A DNA stretch of 64,000 bases. Source: Parcubacteria group bacterium. GTDB taxonomy: Bacteria > Patescibacteriota > Minisyncoccia > SW-4-49-11. This document shows, one piece after another, positions 9,338 to 57,603 of the stretch. Within the stretch, counting starts at the first letter, position 1; every line of letters begins with the position of its first letter. The notes under the pieces were generated by a model, which made no database searches, had not been told where the DNA came from, and saw only the letters and a program-made list of their open reading frames with translations. The stretch spans positions 4,046-68,045 of the forward strand of contig CALRBF010000001.1 of NCBI GenBank assembly GCA_943354045.1, read 5' to 3'. The translations under genes and the position numbers were made by a program.

Positions 9338-9458
9338 AGTCTCAAGAGCTGATTATTAAGCGTCCTCATGCTATATAGCTTTGAGAACTTTTAAATATAT
9401 CATATCCATATTATTTTGTCAATAGCAAATTACAAGTAAAATGACAAGAGCTGTCAAA

Positions 9459-18258: not shown

Positions 18259-19962
18259 CTATTGCGTAATACTTTGGAGTACTGTATTAGATAATCGTGT
18301 CGGCCAATAGGTTAGGCGGCGGATGTGGCCGTTAATCTGCAGCGCAGTCCCTTCAATTTTGCCAATCTCTAAAGTATTGATGCCAGTGGGCAATATGACA
18401 CTAGTGTCAGACAATATGCTTTGCTCGACTGGCCTCATCAGTGCAGTATCGTCAGTTTTGTAAGCGAAGGCTATTTTCGCAAGATTGTTCGCAGAGGGTA
18501 TAGAATAGTTACTAGTAGCTTGAGTTACACCTCCGGTGGTGACTGAATATGTACCTGCTCTTATTGTGAACCTGTCGTTGTTTGGTGAGATTGAGTTGTG
18601 GAAGTTGAACAAGCCGTTATTACTGCCAGCGGCTCCAGTGTGACTATATAGCTGAAGTGCAGTACCCTCACTCTGGTTATACCAACCTCCTGGAGTTGTG
18701 GTAAAGTTAGCTCCTGTTATACTAACATTATCCGCATTTCTAGTAGTAACTCCGGTAGTATTAGGATTTATTAAATAGCTTGTTGGAAAACTTCCCAACT
18801 CAAGCTGCCCTCCCCATACAAATATCCCAGAACTTCCATCTCCTGTATATTTCATTTGAGCCGGGGCTCCTGTATCAGACAAATTATTAGGAGTCCCAAT
18901 ACCAACTTGTAAATTAAAGGGGCCTGTAACTGTGGGGGTGGCCGTTACAAAAGCTCTATACCAGCCATTTCCTACTGGAACAATTTTAGTCTGAGTTGTG
19001 TTGCTGGAGACCCCTGTGGATAAATCTAGCCAGCCATTAGCCCCCCAGAAGGCACCTTCCGTAATATTGAGACTATCAAACCAGATAGTAGCAAATGTTC
19101 TCTCCGCTGCCTTTAAATATACCGAAAATGTATATGTAGTACCTGCATTTAATGTAGGTGCTTTAGACACAGATTGTCTTCCGGTTTGTCCATTATTCCC
19201 TATTAATTTATCCGCCGCCTGACTTCCATCAGGAGCAGTGGCAACATTAAGACTTGATGTTGAGGCTGAAAATGCAGATGTCCCAGCAATATTCTCAGAT
19301 TCAAAATAATTATTAGTTCTTGATTCCTCCACCAACAACCCCAGGCTCTCCCCGGTCGTAGGGTTGTGATCGAATCTTGCTTCATTAGCTACTGCTGTCT
19401 TGATGAGGCCATCTTCTCCCACATAGGTACCTGTACTTGCTCTTGTAAAGCTTATGAGATTATTCCCACTTACTCCATCTATTAAACTCTTGTTCTTTGC
19501 AAAATTTAAGTCTAAACTTGGTGTTCCTCCTATATTCCATATAGTATCTCTTGGATGACTTACTTCTATATTATTATTACTTCTCCTTACATAATAATTA
19601 TTACTATCTGATTGCGGTATACTTGCTATATAGGTTGGTACTAATACTCTTAGATCTGTTTTGTTATTACATAAATTAGCTGGGTTTAATGTATCTGTTG
19701 ATTTTTGGCTCCCTGTATTACATATTACTTTTGCTCCTATATCTATTCCTGTTGGGTATTGTCCATTATTATCTATACTATATTGTTGTATTGCTTTTGT
19801 TATACTATTTATCTCTGATCTTCTTTGTGCACTTCTTGCTGATTCTATTTGTTTATTCGGGTTTATTGCCACCAATACTATTGCTGCTAATATCCCTATT
19901 GCCGCTATTACTAATAATATCTCGAGTAGGGTGAAACCTTTGTTTCGTTTGCTCTTTATCAT
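18259..19962 (-). CDS. Large type IV pilin-like (pseudopilin) protein
   Basis: N-terminal class III signal 'KGFTLLEILLVIAAIGILAAIVLVAINP', followed by a ~530-aa beta-rich G/T/S-rich domain. Confidence 0.7.
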   Translation of the reverse strand: MIKSKRNKGFTLLEILLVIAAIGILAAIVLVAINPNKQIESARSAQRRSEINSITKAIQQYSIDNNGQYPTGIDIGAKVICNTGSQKSTDTLNPANLCNNKTDLRVLVPTYIASIPQSDSNNYYVRRSNNNIEVSHPRDTIWNIGGTPSLDLNFAKNKSLIDGVSGNNLISFTRASTGTYVGEDGLIKTAVANEARFDHNPTTGESLGLLVEESRTNNYFESENIAGTSAFSASTSSLNVATAPDGSQAADKLIGNNGQTGRQSVSKAPTLNAGTTYTFSVYLKAAERTFATIWFDSLNITEGAFWGANGWLDLSTGVSSNTTQTKIVPVGNGWYRAFVTATPTVTGPFNLQVGIGTPNNLSDTGAPAQMKYTGDGSSGIFVWGGQLELGSFPTSYLINPNTTGVTTRNADNVSITGANFTTTPGGWYNQSEGTALQLYSHTGAAGSNNGLFNFHNSISPNNDRFTIRAGTYSVTTGGVTQATSNYSIPSANNLAKIAFAYKTDDTALMRPVEQSILSDTSVILPTGINTLEIGKIEGTALQINGHIRRLTYWPTRLSNTVLQSITQ

Positions 19963-28054: not shown

Positions 28055-28083
28055 TTGACATTTTTACTATTTTATGCTATAAT
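28055..28083 (+). promoter_or_regulatory. Near-consensus sigma-70 promoter (TTGACA-17 nt-TATAAT) driving the GC-rich small ORF
   Basis: 'atattgacatttttactattttatgctataattat'. Followed by RBS GAGGAG at 28097-28102 and ATG at 28110. Confidence 0.5.
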
Positions 28084-28109
28084 TATAACTCAAATTGAGG
28101 AGACTCAAA

Positions 28110-28427
28110 ATGCGTACAGAAGAACCCGTCGGTAATTTGGATGGCATATCCGAAGAACCATTGGGTAATCTTGATCCCAGAGCAAGTCTGCACGAAAACC
28201 TAAGAACGGTTCTCGAACAAGGCCCTTGCACACCATATGCCCTGGTCAAGAACCTCACCTACCAGCCTGGATTCCCCGATTTTGCACAAACCCGAGCATG
28301 GTTGTCACAATTTCTGGGAATTAAGATCCCAAACGACGAGACAGGTATTGTCGTTCTGGTCGGCGACGTCGTTCAGGTGGCAACAGAGACTCGGGACATT
28401 TTCCTTCGGGATCGTCCATATGAGTAG
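28110..28427 (+). CDS. Hypothetical 105-aa protein encoded in a ~50% GC island
   Basis: 'MRTEEPVGNLDGISEEPLGNLD...'. RBS GAGGAG is 7 nt upstream. A perfect promoter lies upstream and a hairpin plus T8 terminator downstream. GC is far above the ~31% background. Confidence 0.55.
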   Translation: MRTEEPVGNLDGISEEPLGNLDPRASLHENLRTVLEQGPCTPYALVKNLTYQPGFPDFAQTRAWLSQFLGIKIPNDETGIVVLVGDVVQVATETRDIFLRDRPYE

Positions 28428-28496: not shown

Positions 28497-28615
28497 GTCC
28501 TTGCAATGATCTACTTTCCCCACGAGGAGTATCATCGACTCACAGAGGCTTAACTTCTAGGTTCGGAATGTAACTAGGTGTACCCCTCTGTGATAAATCA
28601 CAAGGACATTTTTGT
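28497..28615 (-). rRNA. rrf: 5S ribosomal RNA
   Basis: The reverse complement aligns to bacterial 5S ('...CCCCAC..CATCG...ACTTCTAGGTTCGGAATG..ACTAGGTG..ACC...'). It is ~105 nt downstream of the 23S 3' end. Confidence 0.7.
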
Positions 28616-28836
28616 TCTCGAACATAAGATTATCTAAAAAAGATAATCTTATGCTCCAGAATTGTTGTAAATTTAGGTAAAGCAACACTACATAACCTTG
28701 AGTATCAATCAAAAGTTAAAAAGATGAGTTTTAGCGACATTAGTATCACTCGACTGAACACATTACTATGCTTACATCTGTGACCTATCAACGTGGTAGT
28801 CTTCCACGGTCGCATGAGCTACCTAATCTTGAGTAC

Positions 28837-28869
<33 letters not shown>

Positions 28870-29056
28870 AGACCAAACTTAGCTACCCAACAGTGCCATT
28901 GGTATGACAGCTGGTACACCAGAGGTTTGTTCATCCCGGTCCTCTCGTACTAGGGACAAATTCTCTCAAGTAGCAACGCCTACAGAAGATAGAGACCAAC
29001 CTGTCTCACGACGGTTTGAACCCAGCTCGCGTGCCCCTTTAATTGGCGAACAGCCA

Positions 29057-29087
<31 letters not shown>

Positions 29088-30045
29088 GGACGAGCCGACA
29101 TCGAGGTGCCGAACCTGGCCGTCGCTATGGACGCTTGGGCCAGACTAGCCTGTTATCCCCGGGGTAACTTTTATCTGCTGATCTTCCACCTTTCTACAAA
29201 GGATGGTCGGTTCACTAAGTTCCACTTTCGTGACTCAACTAAAGTACCCATTTCTAAAAGAAACACATACAATAGAGGTGTAATGAAAACCATTACAGCG
29301 CGACATACACGTCTTGCAGTAAAGCTAGCTTATGCCTTTGCACTATCTCCCGAATTTCCATATCGGGATAGCTAACCTTATAAACACCTCCGTTACTTTT
29401 TAGGAGGTGAGCGCCCCACTCAAACTACCCACCAGGCACTGTCTCTCATAGTATTAGTATGAGGTTAGTATTCTCATAAATCAAGGGTGGTATCTCACTG
29501 GCGACTCCTTCTTGTCTAGCGACAAGCTATCAAAGTCTCCCACCTATTCTGAACAAAATAAACAAAAATACAATACCAAGCTATAGTAAAGCTCCACGGG
29601 GTCTTCTCGTCTTTCTGTAGGTAAACGGCATCTTTACCGTTATTGCAATTTCACCGGGCAGTTGGTTGAGACAGTTTCCCAGTCGTTACTCCATTCAAGC
29701 GGGTCTGAATTTACCAGACAAGGAATTTCGCTACCTTAGGACGATTATAGTTATCGCCGACGTTCACTGGCGCTTCGGACAGTCAGCTTTCACTGCCATC
29801 GTTAACGTTCCAGCACTGGTCAGGAGTCACCCCCTATACTTCCTTCTTGTGAAGTTAGCAGAGAGCTGTGTTTTTGATAAACAGTCGCTGGGAATCTTTA
29901 GCTGCGGCCTATATTGCTATAGGCAGACCTTATCCCGAAGTTACGGTCGCTGTTTTGCCGAGTTCCTTAACCAACTTTCACCCGTTCACCTTGGTCTTCT
30001 CGACCTACCCACCTGTGTCGGTTTTCGGTACGGTCGACAATGGAT

Positions 30046-30130
30046 TCCCTCCCTAGTTTTATCTACAATAGACTTTTAGATTTTATAATATAAATATTAT
30101 TGTCTATATCTAAACAAAACTAGGGAGGGA
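30046..30130 (-). repeat. Perfect 15-bp stem with a ~55-nt AT-rich loop, inserted in 23S (expansion segment or IVS-like hairpin)
   Basis: 'tccctccctagtttt'...'aaaactagggaggga'. It replaces the E. coli sequence just 5' of 'CGTACCCCAAACCGACACAGGTGG'. Confidence 0.6.
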
Positions 30131-30624
30131 CATAGTGGCTTTTCTTGTCACCTTGGGTCTCTTATATTGAATTCTCTCGCGAGTCTTCTTTATGCGTTTT
30201 TCGGGCTTTAATGACTCCAAAGATTTGCCTCAGAGTCAGCTCTACAGAAACACATATGCCTCAATCCATTAAGACACATAAAATACCATGATGCGTCCCC
30301 ACATTTACAAGCCATTGCCGGTACAGGAATATTAACCTGTTGTCCATCGGCTACCTCCGTTTCCGAAGTTAACCTTAGGCCCGACTAACCCCCCGATGAT
30401 TATCATTGCGGAGGAATCCTTAGGATTTCGGTGGCTCAGAATTTAACTGAACTTGCGGTTACTTATTCCAACATTCTCACTTCCTTGCGCTCCACCAGCC
30501 CTCACGGGTCCAGCTTCAGTGCACAAGGAACGCTCTCCTACCATTATAATACTAATAAATTAATATATAATCCGTAATTTCGGTACTACACTTGAGCCCC
30601 GTTACATTTTCAGCGCATATTTTC

Positions 30625-30903
30625 CTATCCCTCCTCAGTTCTGGGATCGAGCAAGCTATTTTTAACTCGCTCCATCAACTGATATTTGGCACTCCCATGA
30701 GATTTTAGTCTCTTTTCTCTTATCAATGCATCTTTTTTGATTCGATACACTTCAAAGTATATGAGTGTCCATTGACCTTTATGTTTTTTCGTATACTTAC
30801 TCTGCCTAGAATTATGTTCTTCTAATCTTTTTTTGAGATCTTTAGTACTCCCTATATAGAGAGTATAATCTGTAGAGTTTTGAATAAGATATACTATATA
30901 CAT
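30625..30903 (-). CDS. Small GIY-YIG nuclease (YhbQ/UPF0213-like) encoded inside the 23S rRNA gene, in the same sense as the rRNA
   Basis: 'YIVYLIQNSTDYTLYIGSTKDLKKRLEEHN......KHKGQWTLIYFEVYRIKKDALIREKRLKS' matches the GIY-YIG / YhbQ pattern. The last codons and the stop codon lie within the inverted repeat. Confidence 0.8.
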   Translation of the reverse strand: MYIVYLIQNSTDYTLYIGSTKDLKKRLEEHNSRQSKYTKKHKGQWTLIYFEVYRIKKDALIREKRLKSHGSAKYQLMERVKNSLLDPRTEEG

Positions 30904-30937
30904 ATAGATTCATTATACCAGAACTGAGGAGGGAATA
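30626..30937 (-). mobile_element. Inverted-repeat-bounded insertion (IVS-like stem-loop) carrying the GIY-YIG ORF within a 23S helix
   Basis: Left arm 'tatccctcctcagttctgg' (30626-30644) pairs with right arm 'ccagaactgaggagggaata' (30918-30937), giving 19 bp with one bulge. The flanks resume conserved 23S sequence ('GTGCGTAATAGCTCAC' ... 'GCGCTGAAAATGTAACGGGGC'). Confidence 0.5.
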
Positions 30938-31557
30938 GAGTAGTGAGCTATTACGCACTCTTTAAAAGATGGCTGCTTCTAAGCCAACTTCCTACCTGTC
31001 TCAGAAAATACACAACTTTTCCCACTTAGTGTAGTTTAGGGACCTTAATTGACGGTCTGGGCTGTTTCCCTTTTGAACATGGAGCTTAGCCCCCACATTC
31101 TAACTGCTAATCTATAATCTACTGGTATTCGGAGTTTGGTTAGATTGGGTACCCGAAGGCCCCAGATCCATTCAGTGCTCTACCCCCAGTAGGGATCAAT
31201 TAACGCTAGCCTAAGAGCTATTTCGGAGAGAACCAGCTATTACCAAGCTCGATTGGAATTTCTCCTCTATTCACAGCTCATCACCTAGAATTGCACGACT
31301 AGTGTGTTCGGGCCTCCCTTTGATGTTACTCAAAGTTCACCCTGGCCATAAATAGCTCGCCTGGTTTCGGGTCTACTCCCATCAACAATTCGCCCGTTAA
31401 GACTCGATTTCTCTATGCCTCCGTCCTTTTGAGACTTAAGCTGCTGATGAGACGTAACTCGTTGGATCATTCTTCAATAGGCACGCCGTCACCCTTGCGG
31501 GCTCCGACTCCTTGTACGTAAATGGTTTCAGGTCTATTTCATTGTCCTCTCGGACTG

Positions 31558-31594
<37 letters not shown>

Positions 31595-32263
31595 ACATTA
31601 AGTAATATTTAGCCTTACCAGGTTAGTTCTGGTGGATTCAGACAGGGCTTTCTTTTCCCGTCCTACTCAGGAATAGAACCGATATATATACACTGTTTTC
31701 GATTACTCGGCTATCACGATCTATGGCTAAGCTTTCCAGCTTACTCATCTAACAATATATATATATCCTCCTCACGGAATGTTCTACCCTACAACCCCTC
31801 TAGACCGAAGTCTGAGGTTTGGGCTCCTTCCGTTTCGCTCGCCGCTACTAAGGAAATCACATTCGTTTTCTTTTCCTCCGGGTACTGAGATGTTTCACTT
31901 CCCCGAGTTCGCTCCCTAATAACTAGGATACTTGGGCATTACCCCAAGTGGGTTTCCCCATTCGGATATCTCCGGATCAAAGCCTGATTAGCGGCTCCCC
32001 GAAGCTTATCGCAGCTAGTCTACGTCCTTCTTCGCTTCTTAATGTCAAGGCATCCCCCATTTACGCTTACCAACTCATCTTTTTAAATTCTGATTTATAC
32101 TTTTGGTGAAAGTAGTAAAATTGCATTTACCTAAATTTACTTGTGAATGAACCCTCTTATAGAAACAGATGATAATATCTCAAAGGTTGAACTTTAAGAG
32201 GTCATCTCTGTCGCCATATTGCTCCGTAGGTGAGCTGAGTGTGAAGTTGCGAGTACGATATTT

Positions 32264-32292
32264 ATAATACACGAAATCTGAAGAGGTGTCAA
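32264..32292 (-). promoter_or_regulatory. Putative rRNA operon promoter (TTGACA-N17-TATTAT on the minus strand)
   Basis: Minus-strand reading: 'ccTTGACAcctcttcagatttcgtgTATTATaaat'. It is ~180 nt upstream of the 23S 5' end. Confidence 0.4.
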
Positions 32293-32402
32293 GGGTTTCA
32301 GGAGAGAGATTGTATATTTAGGATGAGGAGGGATTTTGATTACAGAATAAAGACATAAAAGGCCAATATCCAGATAAAAAATTATATAGTATGTAGAATA
32401 AA

Positions 32403-32432
32403 AAGAAAAAACCCACCGACGAATCGGTGGGT
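32403..32432 (-). terminator. Rho-independent terminator of the GC-rich secreted-protein gene
   Basis: Minus strand: 'aacccaccgattcgtcggtggg' then 'tttttt'. Confidence 0.6.
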
Positions 32433-32451
32433 TATAAAGGGACTGATTGAC

Positions 32452-33069
32452 TCAGCTGGTCTTGATGCCCTCAATGGCTTTGATCAGGAGCTGGACTTGA
32501 GGCCAAATATTTACCTGAAACCATCTCATCCACTGATCAAAGTTCCTCAACAGCTGTTTTGACTCCGAATCTAGAGTCGTCACCTGAGGTTGAGGAGCGG
32601 GTGGCAACACCACTGGCGGAGGGGCAGCTGGAGCAGATTGCTCCCCACCGATGGTAATCACCTGGTCGATACCGAGGTCACCAGAAGTGGTAAATCTCTT
32701 GTCCGCAATCCCACTGGTCAAGAGGTTGACACCCATGACCCGATAGGGTCCAGGCTCAACCCCATTCAGAGGGACTACCCACACTCCCTGCCGAATCGAC
32801 AGGCTTCCGGGAAGCCTCAAGAGATCGGGTCGAATAGAAAACGGAACTTCATCCTTAAGAACAAGAATGACATCGTGTGAGATGGGACAGGTATTACCCT
32901 GCTCTACCCGAATCAACACAGTGTTGTCCACCGTATTGTCGCTGACCGAAACCAGATACTCGCACGAGTCGATACGCGGATAAGGCGAATCTTGTGCCAG
33001 TACGGGCATCCCGACGAGGGACGCACCGATCATAGTGGAAGTGAAAAGCAACGATTTGAAAGCGGTCAT
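32452..33069 (-). CDS. Secreted hypothetical protein (Sec signal peptide, Pro-rich linker) encoded in a ~52% GC island
   Basis: 'MTAFKSLLFTSTMIGASLVGMPVLAQ|DSP...' is a signal peptide with an AxA-like cleavage site. A linker 'APAAPPPVVLPPAPQPQV' follows. Codon usage differs strongly from neighbouring genes. Confidence 0.6.
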   Translation of the reverse strand: MTAFKSLLFTSTMIGASLVGMPVLAQDSPYPRIDSCEYLVSVSDNTVDNTVLIRVEQGNTCPISHDVILVLKDEVPFSIRPDLLRLPGSLSIRQGVWVVPLNGVEPGPYRVMGVNLLTSGIADKRFTTSGDLGIDQVITIGGEQSAPAAPPPVVLPPAPQPQVTTLDSESKQLLRNFDQWMRWFQVNIWPQVQLLIKAIEGIKTS

Positions 33070-33151
33070 TGAAAAGGATCACATACGATATATATATACC
33101 ATAAAATAACAAAAATGTCAATAGTTATAGGCATTTATTTAAAACCGTTAT

Positions 33152-34894
33152 GTGACACTCTATCCTATGATTTGTCTAAATATATGTTATACTAATACTA
33201 ATTATATGATATATATTATGGTGCTCCAATTATTTAAAAAAATTCATCCTATTTGTTATTTTGTCTTATTTGCTAGTATAATATTTCACTATAAAATTGG
33301 GATACAAAATATATGGCCTGGCAATGTCGACTGGTTATTACAAGCATCTGATTGGCCACAACATTATTTAGGTTGGGAATTCTTTAGGAGAACTTCTTGG
33401 AATTTTCCTCTGGGAGATTTTCAAAACATATTATATCCGGCGAATACAAATATTGGATTTACAGATAGTATTCCACTTCTTGCTATATTATTAAAGATAT
33501 TTAGCGGTATATTACCTGATATTTTTCAATATATTGGATTATGGATATTTATTAATATTGTATTACAAGGATATTTTGCTTATCTCATTTTTAAAAAATT
33601 ACAGTTCTCAACTGCTTCTGCAATTGTTGCGGGTATATTACTTCAATTTACTCCAGCTCTGATCTCTCGTATTAATCATCCAGCTCTTACGGCTCATTGG
33701 CTTATCTTATTTATTATATATAATTATATTTCATTTAATAATACCAAAAGAGATATTTATTTGAATTTTGCTCCTATTATTTTGAGTAGTATGATTCATC
33801 CCTATCTTGCTATTATGATTATTCCTCTCAGTATTGCAAATTTATTCAGATTTGATTCTTTAAAAACAAGACTTATTACCATACCGATTGCTTTAATAAT
33901 ACCAATACTATTATGGTATAGTATTGGATATTTTGTAGACTATTCTATAGGAGATTCTCAGAGTTTAGGATATTATTCAGCAAGTTTACAAACATTCTTT
34001 AATCCACTATATGCTATTTGGGATCATCATTTAAGAGATGCTTCTTTGTGGCTTGATCCAAGAAATCAAAGATATATGCTCCAATATGAGGGGTTTGCTT
34101 ATCTTGGAGCAGGAGTATTGATAGGAGCATTTATTGCCCTCCTATATATAGCCAAAAGATTAATTACTCATTATAAAAAAATAATACCTTTTATTAAAAA
34201 GACTATTCTATCTGGTATTCATAATAGAACTATTATTTTTTGGTTAGGTATTATCGTCGTCTCATTATATGCAATTCTATATCGAGATATTGTCACAATG
34301 TATTTAGAACCTTATGCCCGACTTCCATTTATTCGTATATTTTTAGATAAAGCTGGGGTTATTCGTGCTAATGGGCGATTTATCTGGCCATTAATGTATA
34401 TTGTCATTATTGGAATTATATATTTGATTAATAAAGTATTCTCGAAAAAAGCTTTGTATATATTGATTATATTATTAGGTATTCAAATGATTGACATATC
34501 TCCTCTATTAAAACTTCAGCTATTCAAAGAAAAGGAAATTGTATCGGTAAAATCAGAGTCAAGTATATTTTGGCAAAATACTATTAAAGAATATAAAGGG
34601 GTATATATGTATCCCGGTGGTCAAAGAAGCTATAAAAGTCTTGATGATTATATTATATTTACATTCTGGGCTGCCCAGAATAATATTCCTATTAATGCAG
34701 GCTATTTATCCCGATATGATTTACCTATAGTGCAAAAGTTTAATTTACAAATTGAAAAAAATTTAGTAAATAATAATCTTGATCCCAATATCCTATATAT
34801 TACAACAAAAGATCATAAAGATTTATTTCAAACTGCCAGTAAGAATACCAACAGGGTATTAGCTGAATTTGATGATTATTATATCATTAGATAA
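33152..34894 (+). CDS. Large polytopic membrane protein (~12 TM plus a C-terminal soluble domain). Possibly a DUF6311-like glycosyl/polyprenyl-transferase-type protein.
   Basis: Many hydrophobic helices over the first ~430 aa, then a ~130-aa hydrophilic C-terminal domain. Confidence 0.5.
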   Translation: MTLYPMICLNICYTNTNYMIYIMVLQLFKKIHPICYFVLFASIIFHYKIGIQNIWPGNVDWLLQASDWPQHYLGWEFFRRTSWNFPLGDFQNILYPANTNIGFTDSIPLLAILLKIFSGILPDIFQYIGLWIFINIVLQGYFAYLIFKKLQFSTASAIVAGILLQFTPALISRINHPALTAHWLILFIIYNYISFNNTKRDIYLNFAPIILSSMIHPYLAIMIIPLSIANLFRFDSLKTRLITIPIALIIPILLWYSIGYFVDYSIGDSQSLGYYSASLQTFFNPLYAIWDHHLRDASLWLDPRNQRYMLQYEGFAYLGAGVLIGAFIALLYIAKRLITHYKKIIPFIKKTILSGIHNRTIIFWLGIIVVSLYAILYRDIVTMYLEPYARLPFIRIFLDKAGVIRANGRFIWPLMYIVIIGIIYLINKVFSKKALYILIILLGIQMIDISPLLKLQLFKEKEIVSVKSESSIFWQNTIKEYKGVYMYPGGQRSYKSLDDYIIFTFWAAQNNIPINAGYLSRYDLPIVQKFNLQIEKNLVNNNLDPNILYITTKDHKDLFQTASKNTNRVLAEFDDYYIIR

Positions 34895-54604: not shown

Positions 54605-56800
54605 CTATTTCTTAGTACTCGCTTTTTTCTTAGGTGCCGACTTCTTCACAGTACTAGATTTCTTTTTAGCTTTTGTAGTATAATTACCTGCTTGTTTCTT
54701 TGCTCCTTCTATATATTTACAATCTGGATACCGATTACAAGCTTTGAATGGCCCACGCTTTCCTTTTTTGAATACCATATCCCCCACGCCACATTCTGGA
54801 CATTTTTCTCCTGTTTTATGCTCAATTTTTTTAATTGTCTTACAAGTAGGATAATTAGAACATCCCAAAAATGGTCCGAATCTCCCTGATTTCACCTCCA
54901 TTATTCCATCACTACAATTAGGGCATTTTTCTCCCCCAAAATCTGCCTGTAATTGCTTTTCCTCATCACTTTGCTCAGTATATTTACATTCAGGATAATT
55001 GGTACAGGCTATAAATTTACCAAATTTACTACGCTTGATTTCAAGCTGATTACCACATTCGGGACAAGGTCTATCTTCGATAATATCCCGATGTCGCTCT
55101 ACACTTTTCTCCTTATCTTTCAAATTTTTAGCAAATGGCACATAAAAATCTGCCATTGTTTTTTGATAGGTATCTTTGCCTATGGCAATTTCATCAAATT
55201 GCTCTTCTACTTTAGCAGTAAAATCAATATCTACAATTTGAGGGAAATGCTGTACCAACATATCAGTGACTACTTTCCCAATATCAGTTGGAGCAAATCG
55301 TCTATCATCATTTTTGACTACATATCCTCTGGTCTGAATAGTAGATATAATCGAGGCATAGGTAGATGGCCGTCCAATTGCATTTGTCTCGAGTGCTTTG
55401 ACCAAACTACTTTCACTATAGCGAGCTGGAGGTTGAGTAAAATGCTGTTCTCCTCTAATATCCTGAGTTGAGAGAGTTTCTCCTTGATTGATACGCGGTA
55501 GCAATACATCTTCTGATTTAATATCATATACTCGCATAAATCCATCAAAGACTAAAGATTTTCCTGTAGCAGTAAATGTATAATTCTCTGATTTGGTATC
55601 AGTAATAGCCACATTCATCGTATCGAATAGAGCGGGCTTCATTTGACTTGCCATAAATCGCCCCCAAATAAGACTATATAATTTGTATTGTTTATCATCC
55701 AGATACGGCTTCACATCTTCTGGAGTAAGACTTGGGTCTGTCGGACGAATAGCCTCATGAGCTTCTTGCGCATTCTTAGCCTTGGTTTTGAATTGTCTCA
55801 CCTGATAATAACTTTCCCCAAATTGTTTGGTAATTTGAGCTTTTGCCGCTGCAATTGCCTGCCCAGATAAATTAGTAGAATCCGTTCTCATATAGGTAAT
55901 AAGTCCTGTCTGACCCTTAGAGCCGAGAGACACCCCCTCATATAATTGCTGAGCCACCATCATAGTTTGCTTGGCAGAAAAATATAATCTTCTCGCCCCA
56001 TCTTGTTGTAGGGATGAAGTAATAAAAGGAGGATAGGGATTTCGAGAAACAGATTTATTCTCTATGGATTTAACTTTATAGGATAAGGCTTGTAGCCCCG
56101 CCACCAAATTTTGTGATTCACTTTCTGTCTTATAGGCAAATTTATCTAACCGTTTTCCTCCAATATGCGTAAGATTGGCAGGAATATCAAGAGAAGTATC
56201 CCCACTCAAAAAAACTCCCTCAATAGACCAATATTCTTCTTTCTGAAAAGCTTCTATTTCTCTCTCGCGATCTACTATGAGGCGAAGAGCCACAGATTGC
56301 ACGCGTCCAGCAGATAAACCTCGCTGTACTTTTTGCCATAAAAATGGAGATAATTTATACCCCACCAAGCGATCCAAAGCTCGCCTAGCTTGCTGTGCAT
56401 CTACCAAATTAATATCAATATGCCTGGGACTCGCCAAAGCTTTTTGAATAGCAGATTCGGTGATTTCATGGAATACCATTCTTTTGGCAGTTTCAGGTTT
56501 TAATTTCAAAATATGTGCCAAATGCCAAGATATAGCTTCCCCTTCTCGGTCTTCATCAGTTGCAAGTATTACCTCTCCGCTCATTTTAGCTAATTTTTTG
56601 AGTTCAGTTACCGTCTTCTTTGCCTTAGCCGGAATTTCATAGGTAATATCAAAATTCTCATCGGGATCAACCCCAATTTTAGATTTTGGCAAATCTCGAA
56701 TATGCCCCATAGAAGAAATAACCGTATAATCTCTTCCCAGAAATTTACCAATTGTTTTTGCCTTGGTGGGAGACTCTACAATAATCAGAGCTTTGGACAT
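54605..56800 (-). CDS. topA: DNA topoisomerase I, with C-terminal zinc ribbons and a K-rich tail
   Basis: TOPRIM 'LIIVESPTKAKTI', active site 'TYMRTDST', and three C4 zinc ribbons. Confidence 0.9.
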   Translation of the reverse strand: MSKALIIVESPTKAKTIGKFLGRDYTVISSMGHIRDLPKSKIGVDPDENFDITYEIPAKAKKTVTELKKLAKMSGEVILATDEDREGEAISWHLAHILKLKPETAKRMVFHEITESAIQKALASPRHIDINLVDAQQARRALDRLVGYKLSPFLWQKVQRGLSAGRVQSVALRLIVDREREIEAFQKEEYWSIEGVFLSGDTSLDIPANLTHIGGKRLDKFAYKTESESQNLVAGLQALSYKVKSIENKSVSRNPYPPFITSSLQQDGARRLYFSAKQTMMVAQQLYEGVSLGSKGQTGLITYMRTDSTNLSGQAIAAAKAQITKQFGESYYQVRQFKTKAKNAQEAHEAIRPTDPSLTPEDVKPYLDDKQYKLYSLIWGRFMASQMKPALFDTMNVAITDTKSENYTFTATGKSLVFDGFMRVYDIKSEDVLLPRINQGETLSTQDIRGEQHFTQPPARYSESSLVKALETNAIGRPSTYASIISTIQTRGYVVKNDDRRFAPTDIGKVVTDMLVQHFPQIVDIDFTAKVEEQFDEIAIGKDTYQKTMADFYVPFAKNLKDKEKSVERHRDIIEDRPCPECGNQLEIKRSKFGKFIACTNYPECKYTEQSDEEKQLQADFGGEKCPNCSDGIMEVKSGRFGPFLGCSNYPTCKTIKKIEHKTGEKCPECGVGDMVFKKGKRGPFKACNRYPDCKYIEGAKKQAGNYTTKAKKKSSTVKKSAPKKKASTKK

Positions 56801-56910: not shown

Positions 56911-57528
56911 TCAGTTCGCAGCGCTGGAGCGCCGACGAACTTGACGACCAGGACGGATGATCTGGCGGGGGCGGGCAAACGCGGCCTCGGAAACCGGGAT
57001 CTTCTCAACCCATTTAGTACGGAGACGACCATCCTTGGTGAGGATGGCATCCATGGAGACGAAATCTCCCTTACTTAGGCGCGGAGCATCAATGAAGTCA
57101 ACGGTGACAAAGTGGTCACCAAAGACCTTGACAGAAACATTGCGACCATAATTATCGTCGCACCAAACCCTTTTACAAACCTCCCCACGAATGGAGAATT
57201 CCTCAGGTAGATCATCCTGAGCCCCAGAATTAGGGTCAAGAATGGAAGGTTTCCAGACCCCGATCACTTGGAGCTTGTTTACACGACCATCTTTGGTTTG
57301 TGGATAAACCACGAACATGGCGGAGTTCTCACCCTCCTTGAGAAGTTTAAGGACAAGTCCATGGACTTCTGCTTCAAGAGTAAGAGCTTTCACCCGGAAC
57401 TCACCCGTCAAGGTAATTACCCCGTTAGGGGCAATTACCCCCTTCAAGACTCCGATTGCTCGGGTTTGGAGGAGGTACTCGGGCTCCCCGATGGGGTGGA
57501 GGCGGGGCTGTTTTTGAACGATCGACAC
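56911..57528 (-). CDS. Hypothetical 205-aa protein encoded in a ~52% GC island (GTG start, RBS AGGAG)
   Basis: The base composition of 56900-57540 is far above the flanking ~30% GC. 'AGGAGATCCTACAGTG' supplies the RBS and start. No family recognised. Confidence 0.55.
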   Translation of the reverse strand: MSIVQKQPRLHPIGEPEYLLQTRAIGVLKGVIAPNGVITLTGEFRVKALTLEAEVHGLVLKLLKEGENSAMFVVYPQTKDGRVNKLQVIGVWKPSILDPNSGAQDDLPEEFSIRGEVCKRVWCDDNYGRNVSVKVFGDHFVTVDFIDAPRLSKGDFVSMDAILTKDGRLRTKWVEKIPVSEAAFARPRQIIRPGRQVRRRSSAAN

Positions 57529-57603
57529 TGTAGGATCTCCTACTAATGTTTACAATTCTATTTATATCACATTTTCACAATTTTGTCAATAACTATAATC
57601 ATT

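Follow-up and report, generated by a model that had tools for sequence, protein, structure and literature searches.

A GC-rich gene for a predicted surface protein, conserved beside the 23S-5S rRNA genes of AT-rich Parcubacteria, with a coding sequence predicted to be highly base-paired

Why does a single gene with a GC content of about one half stand, with sharp borders, in the AT-rich genome of a Parcubacteria group bacterium, just upstream of its 23S ribosomal RNA (rRNA) gene? The question is posed by an open reading frame (ORF) of 205 residues, here called gene A, on a 64,000-nucleotide stretch of contig CALRBF010000001.1 (positions 4,046 to 68,045 of the forward strand; assembly GCA_943354045.1), referred to below as the window. 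An initial annotation read gene A as a foreign single-gene island and the rRNA locus as an integration hotspot. Comparison with related genomes leads to another answer, which we favour with moderate confidence: gene A is a native gene, inherited in place, for a surface protein that is probably highly expressed, and its GC-rich, structured mRNA is kept by selection. On this account the gene would be confined to a single clade of AT-rich Paceibacteria (Parcubacteria, candidate phyla radiation (CPR)) and not recently imported; a very strong promoter would lead to high expression of the secreted surface protein; selection acting on the transcript would favour a GC-rich, highly base-paired and hence long-lived mRNA; and this selection at the RNA level would hold the composition against AT mutation pressure. 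At least two other families in the window (B and C), and families D and E elsewhere, would share its compositional class.

GC content of gene A across AT-rich relatives

Gene A has a GC content of 0.525 and a G+C frequency at third codon positions (GC3) of 0.58, compared with medians of 0.337 and 0.218 for the 52 non-overlapping ORFs of at least 100 residues in the window, which as a whole has a GC content of 0.345. At 4-fold degenerate sites G+C amounts to 0.56 (30% G), versus 0.23-0.30 (3-9% G) in three neighbours, and the GC-rich, atypical composition reported in the initial annotation is thus borne out. The same is true of the signals that had been noticed around the gene. A promoter of the consensus extended -10 type lies in the AT-rich flank, and the terminator hairpin (32433..32410, minus strand), with six GC pairs among the ten of its stem and a following T-run, folds at -21.4 kcal/mol with z = -5.2. 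The terminator is present in all orthologs, where it is formed by two different stem sequences, and the same TTGACA-N14-TG extended -10 element stands ahead of gene A orthologs in nine loci. With its own promoter and intrinsic terminator around a single ORF, gene A is shown to be a monocistronic unit just upstream of the separately promoted 23S-5S operon, in agreement with its earlier placement next to an rRNA promoter (coordinates are collected in Table 1).

A search of 5.8 billion proteins yields 43 clusters of gene A homologs (178-257 residues), which are unnamed or derive from metagenome-assembled genomes (MAGs) of Parcubacteria/Minisyncoccia. A profile search of 1.84 billion representatives (50% identity clusters) yields 18 gene A clusters, the gene is encoded by eight GTDB species representatives, all of them Paceibacteria-type MAGs, and a scan of metagenome contigs added just three loci. 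The comparisons below cover 13 related loci, i.e. approximately ten distinct genomes, from independent assemblies (loci are denoted by L numbers). The order of the neighbourhood is conserved, with genes for RmuC, an RsmE-like methyltransferase, SBP_bac_5, SecG, holin_4_2 and sometimes DUF6311 followed by gene A and 23S-5S on the same strand. Gene A occupies the same site in every related locus examined, genomes lacking it not having been searched for, and every homolog with visible flanks stands in an AT-rich Paceibacteria context. The initial annotation had named conservation of the protein in AT-rich relatives as an observation that would speak against an island, and it is in these relatives that the protein proves to be conserved; the 43 homolog clusters, the synteny and the GC-richness of the gene in AT-rich genomes speak against its description as a foreign single-gene island.

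In 12 of the 13 loci gene A has a GC content of 0.48-0.52 and a GC3 of 0.48-0.58, with flanks of 0.28-0.34; the exception is L012, in which GC is 0.43 and GC3 is 0.37. In every genome the GC content rises abruptly, from 0.25 over the 60 nt ahead of the start codon to 0.48-0.52 in each quarter of the coding sequence, and falls to 0.28 past the terminator. The genomes are not closely related to one another. In six flanking orthologous genes, 4-fold sites differ at 0.42-0.55, which is near saturation for that composition, and GC3 stays at 0.13-0.33. In gene A itself, 4-fold sites differ at 0.54 while GC3 stays at approximately 0.5, and no amelioration towards host GC content with divergence is observed. 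A rough two-state estimate indicates that little of an ancestral GC excess should have survived so much turnover, and the uniform GC3 across lineages looks like an equilibrium and not like decay. These comparisons show that gene A stably has a GC content of approximately 0.5 and a GC3 of 0.5-0.58, sharply delimited by its start codon and its terminator.

Predicted architecture and mosaic alleles of the protein

Codon alignment of 14 orthologs gives mean pairwise differences of 0.36, 0.28 and 0.54 at codon positions 1, 2 and 3, respectively. The Nei-Gojobori ratio of nonsynonymous to synonymous substitution (dN/dS) is 0.3-0.45 for the head and 0.1-0.25 for the C-terminal domain; indels preserve the reading frame, and none of the 44 sequences has an interrupted ORF. 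Judged by this pattern of sequence change, gene A is a real protein gene. That the region might instead be a structured non-coding RNA or a leader of the rRNA operon, its ORF open by chance of GC-richness, is suggested by its being GC-rich like the adjoining rRNA, by its strong predicted fold and by the lack of an evident Shine-Dalgarno sequence in the window copy. We consider this exceedingly improbable. Third positions are the most variable and dN/dS is below 0.5, the ORF survives its in-frame indels in all 44 sequences, the protein has a confident predicted fold, and a terminator stands between gene A and the rRNA promoter. The alternative is rejected because there is no Rfam match within 32100-33200 and the RNAalifold consensus of the orthologs is weak (-32 kcal/mol, 57 pairs, covariation term -0.9).

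The protein has the architecture that the initial annotation had described, with a signal peptide, an N-terminal domain with cysteines, a proline-rich linker and a Trp-rich C-terminus, as confirmed by translation, hydropathy and the invariance of Cys36 and Cys61 across 44 aligned sequences. Hydropathy peaks at 1.73 (Kyte-Doolittle scale) over residues 7-25, and residues 6-25 form the sole segment that resembles a transmembrane helix. A Sec signal is predicted by inspection, with cleavage after VLA25 and before QD: n-, h- and c-regions are present, with small residues at -3/-1 (VLA|QD; AKA before TP in the other allele group), and no lipobox ([LVI][ASTVI][GAS]C) is found, the first cysteine being C36 in the contexts RIDSC, VEPC and QQEC. 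In an AlphaFold2 model built on the alignment of homologs, residues 1-32 are disordered (predicted local distance difference test (pLDDT) <50), seven β strands span residues 40-140 (pLDDT 80-92), linker residues 145-163 are again disordered (pLDDT <50), and residues 168-203 of the C-terminal domain form one helix (pLDDT 82-88). The proline-rich stretch PAAPPPVVLPPAPQPQ is seen directly in the translation. The C-terminal helix is rich in Trp and Gln (W180, W183, W189) and amphipathic, with a hydrophobic moment of 0.64 and a mean hydrophobicity of -0.3.

No Pfam, NCBIfam, PHROG or PADLOC model matches gene A, a PDB sequence profile search returns nothing, and a Foldseek search with the model gives only non-significant matches to fibronectin type III (Fn3)/immunoglobulin (Ig)-like folds (best PDB E = 0.087; Fn3 protein in BFVD, E = 0.11). 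The known anchors that were looked for (LPXTG, SLH, LysM, lipobox, a second transmembrane segment) are all absent from the protein, which ends in ...AIEGIKTS. Literature searches returned no description of the gene A family, nor of conserved GC-rich genes in Parcubacteria. The family is probably an undescribed, clade-specific member of a familiar kind, the secreted Ig-like surface proteins. Bacterial surface proteins with Ig/Fn3-like domains on proline-rich stalks are well known, as are mosaic surface antigens shaped by recombination. Like these, gene A has a signal peptide, a predicted β-sandwich head, a proline spacer, a fast-evolving and exchanged head and a conserved, putative attachment end; unlike them, this end is a single amphipathic helix that belongs to no family, and its fold matches are non-significant. 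The protein would be exported by Sec and its signal peptide cleaved, which would leave a mature protein of approximately 180 residues shaped like a lollipop, with a disulfide-containing Ig/Fn3-like head, a proline-rich stalk and the conserved amphipathic, Trp-rich helix, which would hold it at the cell surface or oligomerise it. With none of the tested anchors present, this modelled architecture suggests a small surface-displayed protein that is attached or oligomerised by its conserved helix.

The head is the fastest-evolving part, with an amino acid difference of 0.45 compared with 0.12-0.36 in flanking genes. L011 and L016 are 99.6% identical along a stretch of 10,170 nt that takes in the first 170 nt of gene A; the next ~310 nt of the gene have no blastn match between the two, and the last 200 nt are 90% identical. 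The window copy is 98% identical to that of L009 in the C-terminal segment and 40-50% identical in the head, and L007 and L008 are 96-97% identical in the middle of gene A and 51% identical at its 5' end. These alignments show mosaic alleles, in which the segment coding for the predicted head has been exchanged between lineages; the exchange would run by homologous recombination. Surface molecules that are exposed to hosts or phages are typically mosaic in this way, and by analogy the pattern of head exchange fits a surface-exposed molecule of that kind. A target of a diversity-generating retroelement, or antigenic variation from silent cassettes, was considered and rejected, there being neither template copies nor a reverse transcriptase: within the 64 kb gene A matches only itself by blastn, the sole extra match of the region being its upstream promoter region, which resembles the promoter of cassette B (see below), and no reverse transcriptase is found among the neighbours at 27-38 kb of the window or in the Pfam-annotated related loci.

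RNA base pairing, the GC-rich gene class and the cause of the composition

The coding sequence of gene A has a minimum free energy of -241 kcal/mol, corresponding to z = -3.9 to -4.3 relative to dinucleotide shuffles. Relative to 120 synonymous-codon shuffles, which keep both the protein and the codon usage, the window copy has z = -3.78 and is more stable than every one of them. Twelve members of the gene A family have a mean z of -5.06 (range -2.96 to -7.15), and the L012 copy, despite its lower GC content, has z = -5.3 to -6.8. In the controls, 15 AT-rich neighbours have a mean z of -0.72 (standard deviation (SD) 1.04) and 16 GC-matched E. coli genes a mean of -1.36 (SD 1.41, minimum -4.1); the family differs from either set at p ~1e-5 (Mann-Whitney), a value computed from orthologs that share segments and are not independent. 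The sense strand is more stable than the antisense strand in 11 of 11 cases. We tried a conserved specific RNA structure as an explanation and rejected it, the RNAalifold consensus being weak and devoid of meaningful covariation. There is, with moderate-to-strong support, an excess of base pairing at the RNA level that is reached through synonymous codon choice, a grading that takes account of the E. coli baseline of -1.36, with one value at -4.1; set against the AT-rich neighbours alone, the effect would look too large.

Gene A is not the only gene of this composition. The companion cassette that had been noticed at 28110-28427 (cassette B) is real, with a GC content of 0.50; it encodes a rare orphan with two homolog clusters, and in L013 a copy of 67% identity occupies the same position downstream of 5S. 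Cassette C, also of 205 codons, lies between topA (54605..56800) and a GT4 glycosyltransferase gene and is not near rRNA genes. Its family comprises 37 homolog clusters and is syntenic and GC-rich in L018-L020, with 61-76% identity in the alignment. An AlphaFold2 model of the C protein is a tandem OB fold similar to the two-OB single-stranded DNA-binding protein of Deinococcus/Thermus (Foldseek E = 5e-4), after which the protein ends in a basic tail, ...RRRSSA. Neither B nor C belongs to a Pfam, NCBIfam, PHROG or PADLOC family. Paralogy was sought and not found between A and C, both 205-residue GC-rich ORFs, and likewise between A and the further ORFs that neighbour the rRNA genes of L001, L003 and L005. 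The coding sequences of C and B have z = -2.7 to -5.5 and z = -2.1 to -4.3, respectively.

Perfect TTGACA-N14-TGnTATAww sites number four in the 64 kb, compared with 0.01 expected, and three of the four stand ahead of A, B and C. The 27-nt pattern TTGACATTTTTNNTATTTTATGNTATA fits the promoters of A and B without a mismatch. The fourth site (9394-9422, minus strand) precedes an AT-rich ORF of 72 residues coding for a hydrophobic protein (MATEFIQVWALSLISIAV..., GC 0.34). When the window and related loci are taken together, 15 of 17 perfect promoter sites precede GC-rich ORFs. In other genomes the interval from gene A to 23S contains additional orphan ORFs of high GC content (0.49-0.59). Among these, family D (in L005) is an ORF of 90 residues behind a perfect TTGACA-N14-TGnTATAAA promoter; family E, whose proteins start ...MNISxTLDQAA, has no extended -10 promoter of this type that we could find. 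Searches with D and with the E copy of L003 returned no significant Pfam or PADLOC match. In this organism a small set of genes, which share a promoter type, typically has a GC content of approximately 0.5; the view that such a composition is foreign to the organism's own genes does not hold for A, B and C.

The sharp borders of gene A, its GC content of 0.525 against 0.345 for the window and the lack of an annotated family speak for recent horizontal transfer of a single foreign gene beside the rRNA operon. Such a transfer is nevertheless very improbable, as the gene stands at the same site and is GC-rich in 13 loci (approximately ten genomes) whose flanks have diverged to ~0.5 at 4-fold sites, and mobility genes and repeats are lacking: there is no integrase or flanking direct repeat at its borders and no tRNA gene within 5 kb, the immediate neighbours being DUF6311 and 23S rRNA. 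An ancient acquisition, in which a donor of ~50% GC supplied A-E to an ancestor of the clade in the form of promoter-gene-terminator cassettes, with the rRNA surroundings as landing place and the GC content kept since by constraint or slow amelioration, is less far-fetched, though we still judge it doubtful. Each cassette has its own consensus promoter, terminator and atypical composition, B, D and E are patchy and cluster around rRNA genes, the A-23S interval is variable, and the A and B promoters are nearly identical. Such cassettes would resemble the 'morons' of phages (the concept of Hendrix and Juhala), reportedly promoter-gene-terminator units of atypical composition inserted between phage genes. 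Like morons, gene A has its own sigma-70-type promoter and intrinsic terminator and a composition unlike that of both neighbours. Unlike them, it is flanked by housekeeping genes and rRNA, has no PHROG match and is fixed and syntenic across species, not sporadic, and no relative of gene A occurs on 2.9 million viral contigs. The same search gave no viral relative of C, which moreover is not near rRNA genes; integrase, tRNA and flanking direct repeats are missing near A; and homologs with visible flanks are all in an AT-rich Paceibacteria context. With a 4-fold divergence of ~0.5 in the flanks, GC3 should by the rough two-state estimate have been brought well below 0.5 through passive amelioration, yet it is uniform across lineages at 0.48-0.58. 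As an origin, ancient acquisition of cassettes does not explain why the composition was maintained.

The main rival, which we hold to be unlikely but deserving of more weight than an acquisition, is that gene A is native and that GC-biased gene conversion during frequent recombination pushes all codon positions towards GC, with no selection on RNA. The mosaic alleles are in its favour, segments that are 96-100% identical between genomes having flanks that differ at about half of 4-fold sites, and so is the positive link between recombination and GC3 in bacteria (PMC4450053). In keeping with that link, gene A recombines and has a GC3 far above that of its non-mosaic neighbours; unlike the enrichment reported there, its shift is very large, is bounded by the transcription unit and is accompanied by a pairing excess beyond composition (PMC4450053). 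In 11 loci the GC step falls at the start codon and the terminator, without the tapering of conversion tracts, and the part coding for the signal peptide, identical in L011 and L016, is as GC-rich as the swapped head. Synonymous shuffles that preserve GC3 lose 25-50 kcal/mol of folding stability. Gene conversion predicts neither this loss nor the tie to one promoter type, nor a gene such as C, which is GC-rich yet well conserved and codes for a cytoplasmic OB-fold protein. To our knowledge, the size of the GC3 shift, from 0.2 to 0.55, also far exceeds the effects of gene conversion in bacteria.

The account favoured here, of a native and probably highly expressed gene whose GC-rich structured mRNA is kept by selection, has points against it as well. 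High expression is deduced solely from the match of the promoter to the consensus, and no clear Shine-Dalgarno sequence is present in the window copy. The GC content could also be raised by biased gene conversion in the course of frequent recombination, instead of by selection. With respect to folding, RNAalifold finds no conserved global fold, only a general richness in base pairs being conserved; the p-values for the family overstate independence, the orthologs having segments in common; and one of the 16 E. coli controls reaches z = -4.1, and the window copy (-3.3 to -3.8) falls within the tail of the control values. That the C-terminal helix acts as an anchor or coiled coil is read from a predicted model.

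A more tentative extension, which we regard as possible, is that AT-rich Paceibacteria keep a small class of 'privileged transcripts', comprising short monocistronic genes (A, B, C; D in L005; E) whose GC content of ~50% and dense base pairing are held by selection on RNA. Equally tentatively, the members of such a class would be marked by near-perfect extended -10 promoters (with E, for which none was found, as an exception) and by terminators of their own.

The rRNA neighbourhood

Gene A is upstream of 23S and co-oriented with it in nine of the ten distinct loci that extend far enough, and the arrangement of gene A followed by 23S-5S is seen in L001, L003, L005, L009, L010, L012, L013 and L014. 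Gene A and 23S are 372 nt apart in the window, L001/L007 and L009; in L003, L005, L010, L012, L013 and L014 the distance is 2.7-5.7 kb and the ORFs within it differ. A variable slot adjoins the rRNA operon, and gene A is its fixed border and not its cargo. The proposed integration hotspot at the rRNA genes is not supported for gene A itself; what is left of it applies to the neighbouring interval alone, which ranges from 372 nt to 5.7 kb. Patchy GC-rich ORFs (B, D and E) are found around the rRNA genes of some genomes. The terminator of gene A would also keep read-through transcription from reaching the rRNA promoter, which lies 120-170 nt downstream.

Table 1. Coordinates of features in the window and of GC-rich ORFs between gene A and 23S in related loci
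Feature	Position	Strand	Details
Gene A coding sequence	32452..33069	-	205 residues plus stop, ATG start, 618 nt
Gene A promoter	33093..33121	-	TTGACA-N14-TGgTATATA, consensus extended -10 type; -35 TTGACA 33121..33116, 14-nt spacer, TG 33101..33100, -10 TATATA 33098..33093
Gene A intrinsic terminator	32400..32433	-	10-bp stem AACCCACCGA/UCGGUGGGUU, 4-nt loop, T-run
Sec-type signal peptide (predicted)	32995..33069	-	Residues 1-25; K5 n-region, hydrophobic core 6-24
Head domain (predicted)	32641..32973	-	Residues ~33-143; β-sandwich; fast-evolving, swapped between alleles
Pro-rich linker	32581..32640	-	Residues ~144-163, GEQSAPAAPPPVVLPPAPQPQ; length differs among homologs
C-terminal domain	32455..32580	-	Residues 164-205; most conserved part of the family
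Promoter-like site for 23S-5S	32264..32292	-	TTGACA-17-TATTAT, 11/12 matches, ~185 nt upstream of 23S 5' end
23S rRNA	28720..32080	-	Downstream of gene A, same strand
5S rRNA	28498..28605	-	Downstream of 23S
Cassette B	28055..28427	+	Promoter 28055..28083 TTGACATTTTTACTATTTTATGCTATAAT; 105-residue ORF 28110..28427, GC 0.50; convergent on 5S
Cassette C	56911..57589	-	Promoter 57589..57561; 205-residue ORF 56911..57528, GC 0.528, GC3 0.546
GC-rich ORF, A-23S interval of L003	9467-10078	-	
GC-rich ORF, A-23S interval of L012	15102-15749	-	
GC-rich ORF, A-23S interval of L010	6933-7478	-	
GC-rich ORF, A-23S interval of L005	11049-11375	+	

On the other side of gene A, a gene for a DUF6311 membrane protein of 580 residues (33152-34894, plus strand) is the divergent neighbour in the window and likewise in L001. 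In L003 (10319-11991, minus strand) and L004 DUF6311 is split into three pieces on the opposite flank of gene A, which shows rearrangement around the gene. A 15-nt inverted repeat, 93% complementary, connects 31970-31984 with 32476-32490 (GGCTTTGATCAGGAG / CTCCGGATCAAAGCC), linking the 3' end of the gene A coding sequence with the 5' region of 23S; it is probably due to chance. The 23S match spans 3361 nt, compared with a model of 2925 positions, and because it contains an ORF for a GIY-YIG endonuclease of 92 residues (30625-30903, minus strand; Pfam E = 5.6e-17), the window 23S gene probably has an intron with a homing endonuclease. The 23S length is 3293 nt in L013, 3398 nt in L014 and ~3005 nt in L001, L003, L009 and L012, so that the insertion is variable between genomes. 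No 16S gene is present in the window, and the 23S-5S operon is thus unlinked from 16S. Elsewhere in the window, a protein of 567 residues (18259-19962, minus strand), whose gene has a moderately raised GC content of 0.40, carries an N-terminal N_methyl prepilin-type motif (E = 2e-6) and may be a pilin-like surface protein.

A variable stretch beside rRNA genes is also known from SAR11/Pelagibacterales, in which a hypervariable island, hypervariable region 2 (HVR2), is described as splitting the rRNA operon and carrying genes for cell-surface glycans, as set out in the HVR2 passages of one account (PMC7318151). Judged against those passages, the present locus is similar in its streamlined AT-rich genome, its unlinked rRNA operon and the variable, surface-related stretch that adjoins the rRNA (PMC7318151). 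It differs in that the slot from gene A to 23S measures only 0.4-5.7 kb and is occupied by orphan ORFs, with no large glycosylation island as in the HVR2 passages, and in that gene A is a conserved border and not variable cargo; a GC-rich composition is not described as a feature in the same passages (PMC7318151).

Atypical GC content is routinely read as horizontal transfer, and the composition of gene A taken by itself would mislead island-finding tools in CPR genomes. If privileged transcripts of the kind tentatively proposed above do exist, compositional 'islands' in such genomes mark an expression strategy and not a foreign origin, and the benefit could be extreme longevity of mRNA in ribosome-poor, ultra-small cells, or a role of the RNA beyond coding. 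If selection for a structured, long-lived mRNA is the cause of the GC-richness of gene A, the gene offers a testable case of selection at the nucleotide level that overrides strong AT pressure in ultra-small bacteria. Its protein, a candidate surface molecule with a signal for secretion and a recombining head, could act in host attachment or phage recognition, in a lineage with almost no known surface biology.

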